From the NCBI RefSeq assembly GCF_020073745.1, contig NZ_JAIRAU010000002.1:209694-273693 (forward strand): DNA of 64,000 bases, written 5' to 3'. Positions 9,364 to 10,991 of the stretch are shown here, one piece after another; the stretch's first letter is position 1, and each line of letters begins with the position of its first letter. Below the pieces are notes generated by a model. That model saw only the letters and a list, made by a program, of their open reading frames with translations, did not search any database and was not told where the DNA came from. The DNA is from Nannocystis pusilla (lineage in GTDB: Bacteria; Myxococcota_A; Polyangia; Nannocystales; Nannocystaceae). A program made the position numbers and the translations under genes.

Positions 9364-10179
9364 TTGCTGCATGACTTGAAGGACAGGGTCGTCTTGATCA
9401 CGGGCGGGACGCGGGGCATCGGCCTCGCGTGCGCGCTCGCGTTCGGCCGCCACGGCGCGCGCACGGTGCTGACGCACCGCTGGGGCTCGGCCGACGAGGA
9501 CGCGCTGCGGGCCCGGTTCGTGGCCGCGGGCGCCCCGGCGCCGCTGGTGATCGAGGCCGACGCCTCGCGCGAGGAGGACACCGACAAGCTGACGGCGCGC
9601 CTCAAGGAGGAGTGCGACGGCGTGTGGGCCTTCATCAGCAACGTGTGCGTGGTCCAGCGCGGCGACGGGCCGATGAGCCACTCGCGGCGCGCGCTGTACA
9701 AGAGCCTCGAGTACTCGAGCTGGCCGTTCGTCGGCTACCTGCAGGCGCTGCACGCCGCGTTCGGTCGCTACCCGCGCTACGCCCTGGCGATGTCGTCCGA
9801 CGGCCCCGACACCCACTACCCGGGCTACGACTACGTGGCGGTGGCGAAGGCGGTGCTCGAGACGTTCGTGCGCTACATGAGCACGCACCTGTACGAGCAC
9901 GGCTGCATCGTCAACGCGCTGCGCACCCGCCAGGTGATGACCGAGAGCTACGAGCAGATGTTCGCCGCCGAGCAGCGCGCGCTGGCCGGCAAGTTCCCCG
10001 AGTTCGCGTGCACCGTCGACGAGGTCGCCGACACCGCGCTCGCGCTGTGCAGCGGCCTGTTCGACGCGATGGGCGGGCAGGTGCTGACGCTCGACCGCGG
10101 GGCCGCGTTCGTCGACAACATCGCCACGCTGGGGCCGCGCCTCGTCGCCGGCACCGACAAGGAAGGGACGGCGTCGTGA
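9364..10179 (+). CDS. FabI/FabL-like enoyl-ACP reductase (SDR, Y-x6-K), paralogue 1
   Basis: ITGGTRGIG Rossmann motif and a YDYVAVAK Y-x6-K catalytic dyad typical of the FabI family. TTG start sits 9 nt after ggagga. 272 aa. Confidence 0.65.
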   Translation: MLHDLKDRVVLITGGTRGIGLACALAFGRHGARTVLTHRWGSADEDALRARFVAAGAPAPLVIEADASREEDTDKLTARLKEECDGVWAFISNVCVVQRGDGPMSHSRRALYKSLEYSSWPFVGYLQALHAAFGRYPRYALAMSSDGPDTHYPGYDYVAVAKAVLETFVRYMSTHLYEHGCIVNALRTRQVMTESYEQMFAAEQRALAGKFPEFACTVDEVADTALALCSGLFDAMGGQVLTLDRGAAFVDNIATLGPRLVAGTDKEGTAS

Positions 10180-10991
10180 TCCTCCGCAACGATCTCAAGG
10201 GGAAGGTCGTCGTCGTCACCGGCGGGACGGCGGGGATCGGCCTGGCGACGGGCCTCTTGTTCGGCAAGCACGGGGCGCACGTGTACCTCACGCACCGCTG
10301 GGGCTCGGCCGACGAGGACGAGCTGCGCGCGCAGTTCGAGGCCGCCGGCGCCCCGGCGCCGACGATCGTCGAGGCCGACGCGTCGCAGGACGAGGACACC
10401 GAGGCGCTGATGCAGCTGATCCGCCGCGACCACGACGCCGTGTTCGCGCTGATCAGCAACGTGTCGTTCGCCCACGTCAGCAAGTCGCACGAGGACCTCG
10501 ACAAGAAGTCGTTCCTGCGCAGCCTCGGCTACAGCGCGTGGCCGTTCGTCGGCTACCTGCAGGCGGTGCGCGAGACCTTCGGCCGCTGGCCGAAGTACGC
10601 CGTGGGAATGTCGTCGCGCGGGCCCGAGTACTTCCTGCCGGGCTATGACTTCGTCGCCGCGAGCAAGACCGTGATGGAGACCTTCTGTCGCTACCTCACG
10701 GCAGATCTGCTCAGTGAGGATGTTCGCATCAACATCCTGCGCGCGAACCCGGTCGAGACTGCATCGCTGGAGGCGACCTTCGGGCCCGACTTCGTGCCGT
10801 TCTGCAAGAAGTACTACTCGGAGGGCTGGTTCATCGACCCCGACGAGGTCGCGGCCGCGGCGCTGGCCCTCTGCAGCGGCCTCATGGACGGGGTCAAGGG
10901 GCAGATTCTGCTACTGGACAGAGGGCTCGGTTTCGCCGACAACGTCGTTCGCCTGTTCTCTGCGCGCGAGCGCCACGGGCTGAGTTTTTGA
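10176..10991 (+). CDS. FabI/FabL-like enoyl-ACP reductase (SDR, Y-x6-K), paralogue 2
   Basis: VTGGTAGIG and YDFVAASK. The GTG start overlaps the stop of paralogue 1 as GTGA. 272 aa and clearly paralogous to the preceding gene. Confidence 0.7.
   Translation: MILRNDLKGKVVVVTGGTAGIGLATGLLFGKHGAHVYLTHRWGSADEDELRAQFEAAGAPAPTIVEADASQDEDTEALMQLIRRDHDAVFALISNVSFAHVSKSHEDLDKKSFLRSLGYSAWPFVGYLQAVRETFGRWPKYAVGMSSRGPEYFLPGYDFVAASKTVMETFCRYLTADLLSEDVRINILRANPVETASLEATFGPDFVPFCKKYYSEGWFIDPDEVAAAALALCSGLMDGVKGQILLLDRGLGFADNVVRLFSARERHGLSF

Follow-up and report, generated by a model that had tools for sequence, protein, structure and literature searches.

A tandem pair of FabL/FabI-like reductases from Nannocystis pusilla as probable subunits of a single heteromeric enoyl-acyl carrier protein reductase

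A stretch of 64,000 nucleotides from Nannocystis pusilla (hereafter the 64-kb window, with a GC content of 71% over its whole length) contains a co-directional operon of 11 genes on the forward strand (1581-11321). In this order it encodes an alpha-oxoamine synthase (AONS), a malonyl-CoA:acyl carrier protein (ACP) transacylase (AT), a dehydratase (DH), a ketosynthase (KS), a ketoreductase (KR), a 3-hydroxy-3-methylglutaryl-CoA synthase-like enzyme (HMGS), two crotonase-fold enzymes (ECH1 and ECH2), two short-chain dehydrogenases/reductases (SDR1 and SDR2) and an ACP. Here we explore the SDR1/SDR2 gene pair. Comparison with homologous loci suggests, at a probability that we put at about 0.62, that the two proteins would associate physically as subunits of one heteromeric enoyl-ACP reductase (ER) of FabL/FabI type, and this enzyme probably uses NADPH.

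SDR1, the 'first' subunit, is encoded at 9364-10179 (+) with a TTG start at 9364 and a TGA stop at 10177-10179; a GGAGGA ribosome-binding site lies at 9352-9357, 6 nt upstream of the TTG. SDR2, the 'second' subunit, is encoded at 10176-10991 (+), from a GTG start at 10176 to a TGA stop at 10989-10991, and the Shine-Dalgarno-like sequence AGGAAGGGA (10160-10168, +) is found within the 3' end of SDR1, 7 nt upstream of this GTG. The genes share the start/stop overlap GTGA (10176-10179, +), just as an earlier interpretation made without database searches (hereafter the sequence-only reading) had described. That reading gave each protein 272 aa, which is the number of codons with the stop included, so that each protein has 271 aa; its estimate of about 60% identity was too high, since BLASTP gives 50% (129/256, E 2e-90). 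Paralogy is nevertheless far above chance level. The motifs that it pointed out are present in both copies: SDR1 has TGGTRGIG (9400-9423) and YDYVAVAK, with the codons for Tyr155 at 9826-9828 and Lys162 at 9847-9849, and SDR2 has TGGTAGIG (10218-10241) and YDFVAASK, with Tyr157 at 10644-10646 and Lys164 at 10665-10667. The identical overlap occurs in five Nannocystis genomes (proteins from N. radixulma are 98-99% identical to those of the window), and the remaining adjacent pairs that are not fused show overlaps of 4-11 nt or gaps of at most 31 nt.

Membership of the SDR superfamily is clear from Pfam PF13561 (adh_short_C2), to which the two proteins score 92.5 and 112.2 bits at a cut-off of 27, and the beta-alpha-beta SDR topology is visible in both AlphaFold2 (AF2) monomer models (predicted local distance difference test 87.6 for SDR1 and 91.3 for SDR2; predicted template modelling scores 0.88 and 0.90). 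Neither protein reaches any NCBIfam equivalog cut-off for FabI, FabL or FabG, and the margins are wide: FabI models (cut-offs 299-477) score 42-61 bits, at best 48.6 for SDR1 and 61.3 for SDR2, and the FabL model NF005975 (cut-off 328) scores 69.8 and 78.3 bits. Single-sequence searches (phmmer against PDB, and NCBIfam) returned FabIs and FabL mixed with FabG-like proteins and glucose dehydrogenase, with PDB scores of 68 bits or less. Since these matches were mixed, family profiles were built from 40 and 42 orthologues and used for hmmsearch against PDB, and these resolved the nearest relatives. Bacillus subtilis FabL (YgaA, PDB 3oic, NADPH-dependent enoyl-ACP reductase III) ranked top for both copies (97 and 87 bits), followed by Aquifex FabI and then by more than 15 other FabIs.

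Family members were aligned by MAFFT with Escherichia coli FabI (EcFabI), E. coli FabG, B. subtilis FabL (BsFabL, its sequence verified against 3oic) and the operon KR. Tyr155/157 and Lys162/164 align with Y156/K163 of EcFabI and Y151/K158 of BsFabL, and this dyad is invariant across 123 family members and 100% conserved in all four ortholog groups. The column of the classical SDR Tyr, as in FabG, is Val in 100% of the family, the Tyr being found at K-7 as in FabI and FabL. The classical Asn-Ser-Tyr-Lys tetrad with Y-x3-K is therefore absent from both SDRs, which have Val at the Tyr and lack the classical Asn helix in alphaE; their alphaE segment, LEYSSWPFV, instead resembles DISSYSFV of FabI. 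With the 'divergent' SDR ERs FabI and InhA the pair thus shares the dyad column for column, the alphaE motif and many profile and fold matches. It differs from these in the glycine motif (G-x5-S-x-A, or GxxxxxSIA, in FabI), which is replaced by the classical TGGTxGIG, and in the second Tyr (Y146 of EcFabI), whose column is Ser. With FabL, the nearest characterised relative, it shares a TGxxRGxG-type motif, Y-x6-K, Ser at K-17 and a basic residue after beta2. Particular to the family, which forms a clade separate from FabL, are an invariant LTHRWGSADE stretch and a C-terminal helix of about 20 residues with an invariant D-N.

By its motifs the family is a hybrid, in which a FabI-like alphaE is joined to Ser at K-17 and to a glycine motif of classical or FabL type. 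In a neighbour-joining (NJ) tree it is monophyletic (bootstrap 94%) and groups with FabI and FabL apart from FabG and the operon KR (bootstrap 91). Of 1.84 billion cluster representatives searched exhaustively by phmmer, only 96 matched at E <=1e-30, which points to a small, discrete family. The label 'FabI-like' of the sequence-only reading therefore holds as far as the profile ranking and the aligned dyad go, but is imprecise, since these are FabL-like hybrids in a family of their own. The two findings that it had named as speaking against itself, a profile assignment to a non-ER subfamily such as the carbonyl or sepiapterin reductases and the loss of the catalytic Tyr or Lys from one copy, were not made. 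A role as ER is also expected because a FabG-like KR is already encoded in the operon, and enoyl reduction is the sole step of a fatty acid synthase (FAS) otherwise missing. SDR1 and SDR2 are supported by this sequence evidence as putative FabL/FabI-type ERs.

A scan of GTDB species genomes, together with metagenome look-ups, yielded 89 loci (L001-L089), which were mapped by tblastn with the proteins of the window. The SDR pair is kept in more than 50 of the loci, and in more than 45 the paralogues are adjacent or parted by the ACP gene alone, so that they are co-encoded and co-inherited. The gene order of the window recurs in Nannocystis, Enhygromyxa, Plesiocystis and other Myxococcota metagenome-assembled genomes (MAGs), as well as in Planctomycetota, Armatimonadota and Nitrospinota; most Myxococcota have the tandem pair, and among cultured organisms only Nannocystis, Enhygromyxa and Plesiocystis were found to carry the operon. 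Clusters with a single SDR, a full HMGS/ECH1/ECH2 cassette and a rearranged gene order were found in Spirochaetota, FCPU426, Firestonebacteria and Aminicenantes, and in Anaerolineae the order is KR-SDR-DH-ACP-KS-KS-AT, HMGS and AONS both being absent. The tree places the single-copy proteins outside the duplicated ones (NJ bootstrap 39-50% for a strictly basal single-copy clade); among the latter, the downstream copies form one 'second' clade (67) and the upstream copies two groups, firstA and firstB (73 and 92 for the two 'first' groups). Since clades follow gene position across several phyla, the duplication is old and both copies have been maintained. Many clusters of the firstB type contain a third SDR right after the ACP gene (L003 at 11251-12063; L040, L041, L043, L051, L052 and L054), which resembles a classical KR, is 28-30% identical to the KR of the operon and has no counterpart in the window.

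In seven genomes SDR1 and SDR2 are joined in a single ORF of 555-576 aa. The carriers are three strains of Enhygromyxa salina, two Enhygromyxa MAGs, Plesiocystis pacifica SIR-1 (ATG start, 9095-10807 in L029) and one Nannocystaceae MAG. Their linkers, rich in Pro and Ala, are 54, 84, 87, 99, 108, 117 and 129 nt long (GC at third codon positions 0.78-1.00), lengths which show that all seven keep the reading frame, and a 565-aa fusion (P0234) was the best match of the exhaustive search. An apparent SDR-ACP-SDR fusion of 650 aa in two Planctomycetota loci (L055, at 8891-10843, and L056) was rejected as a high-GC artefact, since the ACP is encoded in another frame; these ORFs illustrate how high GC yields spurious long ORFs that resemble fusions. 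Three proteins of 370-424 aa (P0008, P0011 and P0038) are suspected of owing their length to starts called too far upstream, not to fusion.

A degenerate SDR1 homologue is found directly upstream of an intact SDR2 in two Nannocystaceae-related MAGs (L032 and L035), in Armatimonadota (L045) and in Nitrospinota (L057 and L060). These copies are still homologous (E 3e-42, 2e-29, 7e-29). They have a degenerate glycine motif and lack the HRWGS and SNV segments; a substitution or deletion has removed the catalytic Tyr, in most cases the Lys has disappeared as well, and deletions take away 28-72% of the substrate loop. Their identity to the live consensus is 0.4-0.7 in beta5, alphaF, beta6 and alphaG/beta7, and 0.03-0.32 in the cofactor, substrate-loop and C-terminal regions. 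The elements that were retained are those that in known SDRs build the oligomer interfaces. Fused versions of this state occur as well, and free and fused cases together come from five or six lineages. In P0235 (520 aa, from a marine metagenome) a live SDR2-like domain follows a dead N-terminal domain that has K->Q and a short loop; the protein is encoded in the same type of operon with an intact HMGS cassette. Proteins P0250, P0258, P0259 and P0286 (405-428 aa) begin with a live SDR1-like domain and end in what remains of the C-terminal half of an SDR, and the P0258 cluster additionally encodes a third SDR, live and separate, ahead of the ACP gene. Wherever SDR1 is degenerate, SDR2 is the copy that stays intact. 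Both copies are intact in the Nannocystis window; the state with an inactive subunit is the one seen elsewhere, in the five loci named above and in P0235.

The series runs from a single gene through a tandem pair and an in-frame fusion to states, paired or fused, in which one half is dead, and is what is expected if both proteins form one enzyme. It is the retention of dead partners and the fusion of SDR1 and SDR2 in relatives that lead us to favour a heteromer, an idea which the sequence-only reading had put forward and for which the seven fusion genomes and the retained dead partners now argue strongly on comparative grounds. By analogy with other SDRs the stoichiometry is likely that of an alpha2-beta2 tetramer. 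Petunia benzaldehyde synthase is an alpha2-beta2 SDR with a catalytically dead subunit that is essential for assembly, and BbsCD of Thauera and human HSD17B8/CBR4 have been cited alongside it (PMC13418739). As in these heterotetramers, the subunits here are paralogous, and a dead partner is kept in several SDR1/SDR2 lineages. They differ in that the known cases are carbonyl, thioester or alcohol oxidoreductases with Y-x3-K whereas SDR1/SDR2 is of ER type and would form its complex by our interpretation, and in that both subunits look live in Nannocystis. The ketoacyl-ACP reductase HSD17B8/CBR4 serves a type II FAS. FabL is a homotetramer made from one gene, in contrast to the two paralogues, fusions and pseudo-subunits of the present family. 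SDR pseudo-dimers with a structural and a catalytic half in one chain are found in the psiKR-KR pairs of polyketide synthases (PKSs) and animal FAS and in FabG4 of Mycobacterium tuberculosis; P0235 and the P0258-type proteins resemble these in having a degenerate SDR half beside a catalytic half. Those are ketoreductases, however, whereas the SDR1/SDR2 family has separate, fused-live and fused-dead states in living lineages.

Several observations weigh against a single heteromeric ER. Both Nannocystis copies look fully competent, as would also be expected of two separate homo-oligomers, and gene fusion is also known between enzymes that merely share a pathway. Eight loci have the order SDR-ACP-SDR, and about 6 kb separate the two live SDR genes of the P0258-type cluster. 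A single duplication is weakly supported, with an NJ bootstrap of 45% for firstA and firstB together. The GTGA overlap is little argument for complex formation because stop/start overlaps recur in the same operon (13 nt between AT and DH; ATGA between ECH1 and ECH2), and is ordinary packing of operon genes. Finally, Foldseek searches of PDB with the two AF2 models, in which every match has a TM of 0.70-0.82 and FabIs lie at 0.73-0.78, are unable to tell an ER from other SDRs as far as these models go, and motif and profile evidence was therefore taken instead.

The main rival is a division of labour without a complex, in which SDR1 and SDR2 would be independent homo-oligomeric ERs for different substrates, either 3-methylcrotonyl-type versus ordinary trans-2-enoyl-ACP, as the sequence-only reading had proposed as another option, or short versus long chains. 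We consider this unlikely, although a real contender. It would fit the strong conservation of all cofactor and catalytic motifs in both copies, and the differences between the paralogues, which gather beside the nicotinamide pocket and in the substrate-binding loop (SNVCVVxRG versus SNVSFAHVS after beta4, then RTRQV versus RANPV, and a 2-residue loop deletion in SDR1). It would also fit the dead SDR1 of both HMGS-less clusters with a firstA-type partner (L032 and L035), and the additional, separately placed live SDR of the P0258-type and L045 clusters. The distribution can be explained without dividing branched from linear substrates, however, because one live site coexists with the full HMGS cassette, and live pairs occur without a nearby cassette. 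The former is the case in the single-SDR clusters of the four lineages listed above, with P0235 and its dead N-terminal and live C-terminal domains, and in the Nitrospinota cluster L057 with its dead SDR1; the latter is the case in L042, L048, L053 and L054, where live tandem pairs have no HMGS cassette within 10 kb. Nor do independent enzymes explain why a dead copy is kept adjoining or fused in several phyla. Since both sites of the Nannocystis pair look live and paralogue-specific residues cluster at the nicotinamide pocket and substrate loop, the two sites may differ in substrate preference, and the Nannocystis enzyme may be a heteromer with two differently tuned active sites.

It is improbable that one or both SDRs are carbonyl reductases, acting for instance on the alpha-amino ketone formed by AONS in the manner of 3-ketosphinganine reductase or aminoacetone dehydrogenase. 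The operon does encode an AONS, an enzyme that yields a ketone, the best Foldseek match of both models is the aminopropanol/aminoacetone dehydrogenase of Mycobacterium smegmatis (6ci9, TM 0.79-0.82), and phmmer and NCBIfam score classical SDRs (glucose dehydrogenase, FabG-like) about as high as FabL and FabI. The absence of the classical Tyr, the profile ranking and the logic of the operon make such a role unlikely: the invariant Val stands where Y-x3-K has its Tyr, which is instead at K-7, FabL and FabI top the family-profile ranking, alphaE follows the FabI pattern, and the pathway would hold KS, KR and DH yet no ER. In addition, the Anaerolineae members of the family belong to clusters without any AONS. 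Plain redundant tandem duplicates, kept by chance or for gene dosage, are frequent among bacterial SDR genes but hardly credible here, given an identity of merely 50%, invariant residues specific to each paralogue, and a phylogeny in which the copies fall into separate position-based clades over several phyla.

A single heteromeric ER would fit into the operon as follows. AONS (1581-2840, +), a pyridoxal phosphate (PLP)-dependent enzyme of the BioF/Kbl/SPT family, is the predicted chain-release enzyme; its family scores (bioF 326 bits, below the cut-off of 426; SPT models 230-296 bits) are non-diagnostic for the amino-acid substrate. The FabD-like AT (2866-3873, +) is followed by a FabZ/FabA-like hotdog DH (3861-4415, +) that begins with GTG and overlaps the AT stop. 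KS (4442-5752, +) has the PksF-like PRK07103 model as its best family and its active-site Cys in GGACAS, and the FabG-like KR (5761-6504, +) has the classical Y-x3-K. HMGS (6518-7759, +), for beta-branching, precedes the PksH-like ECH1 (7809-8564, +), the predicted dehydratase of the HMGS cassette, and the PksI-like ECH2 (8561-9334, +), the predicted decarboxylase. The AcpK-like ACP (11055-11321, +) is the only one of the operon. HMGS, ECH1, ECH2, KS and ACP, the components of HMGS-type beta-branching, are thus encoded together; ECH2 scores above its family cut-off (PRK07110, 272 bits against 215) and the others below theirs. In several single-SDR clusters (L064-L067, L070, L072 and L075) a second, divergent KS-like gene lies just 5' of the main KS, at about 3500-5000 of each locus. 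It has 31-36% identity to the KS of the window, is not present in the Nannocystis operon and could be a chain-length-factor-like or decarboxylating KS.

In the proposed pathway, AT would place malonyl on the single ACP, KS would form the beta-ketoacyl-ACP, and HMGS, ECH1 and ECH2 would add an acetate-derived methyl branch. KR, DH and the SDR1/SDR2 ER would finish the reductions, the last of these filling the only missing step in a pathway of AT, KS, KR, DH and the HMGS cassette. AONS would then free the chain through a decarboxylative condensation with an amino acid, yielding a branched alpha-amino ketone or a lipid resembling a long-chain base. From these gene assignments we infer that the operon encodes a self-contained, ACP-dependent pathway of type II FAS/PKS-like character, and infer its substrates and product likewise. 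The HMGS cassettes of bacillaene (PksF/G/H/I and AcpK), whose families are the best matches of the five proteins, and curacin (CurD/E/F) resemble the present operon, which has a PksF-like KS, HMGS, ECH1, ECH2 and AcpK-like ACP. They differ in that the present operon has no modular PKS nearby and uses discrete type II enzymes, a single ACP and release by an oxoamine synthase; in curacin, moreover, the reduction step is carried out by an MDR-type ER and not by an SDR pair.

Upstream, a divergent gene for an extended SDR of the NAD-dependent epimerase/3-beta-HSD family (34-1146, -) neighbours the operon in Nannocystis only. Its best NCBIfam matches are HpnA-like and OleD-like, all below cut-off; it could be a candidate reductase of the amino-ketone product, its membership of the system being uncertain. 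Directly downstream of the ACP gene, and convergent with it, lies a gene for a hydrophobic 269-aa protein with no Pfam match (11489-12298, -), followed by a PduO-type cobalamin adenosyltransferase (12594-13181) and a DUF4388 protein (13291-14295). A CDP-alcohol phosphatidyltransferase (21116-21730, +) and a PlsC-type acyltransferase (28889-29902, -) are encoded 10-18 kb from the operon, and a role for them in lipid head-group attachment is speculative. Tandem paralogues of lipoprotein signal peptidase II (Peptidase_A8, LspA) are found at 23019-23702 and 23884-24501 (-); extra lspA copies in myxobacteria have been associated with self-resistance against LspA-targeting antibiotics. Further on, a bacterial GRAS-domain protein (PF03514, E 1e-33) is encoded at 49510-50682 (+), followed by a SpoIIE/PP2C phosphatase (51178-52149) and an adenylate/guanylate cyclase (52902-54155).

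The enoyl-ACP reductases FabI, FabL, FabV, FabK and InhA are antibiotic targets, and to our knowledge all have been described as products of single genes. Our literature searches for a heteromeric ER found none, although they did find the SDR heterotetramers discussed above. It is conceivable, at somewhat less than even odds, that SDR1/SDR2 represents the first obligately heteromeric enoyl-ACP reductase, with every stage of its evolution still alive (homomer, tandem paralogues, in-frame fusion, and pseudo-dimer with a dead or truncated half) in parallel to the way in which ketoreductases of PKS and FAS gained their structural psiKR half, and that it serves a widespread pathway to a methyl-branched amino-ketone or long-chain-base-like lipid. 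If the heteromer is real, a two-subunit ER with fused and half-dead variants would be a new architecture for this enzyme class, as well as a natural experiment on the origin of SDR pseudo-dimers such as the psiKR/KR of PKS and FAS. The operon itself, for which our literature searches found no paper describing it, appears to be uncharacterised, a conserved multi-phylum orphan in which FAS-like enzymes, polyketide-style beta-branching and sphingolipid-style PLP-dependent release are mixed. Once identified, its product might turn out to belong to a new class of branched amino lipids or signals.

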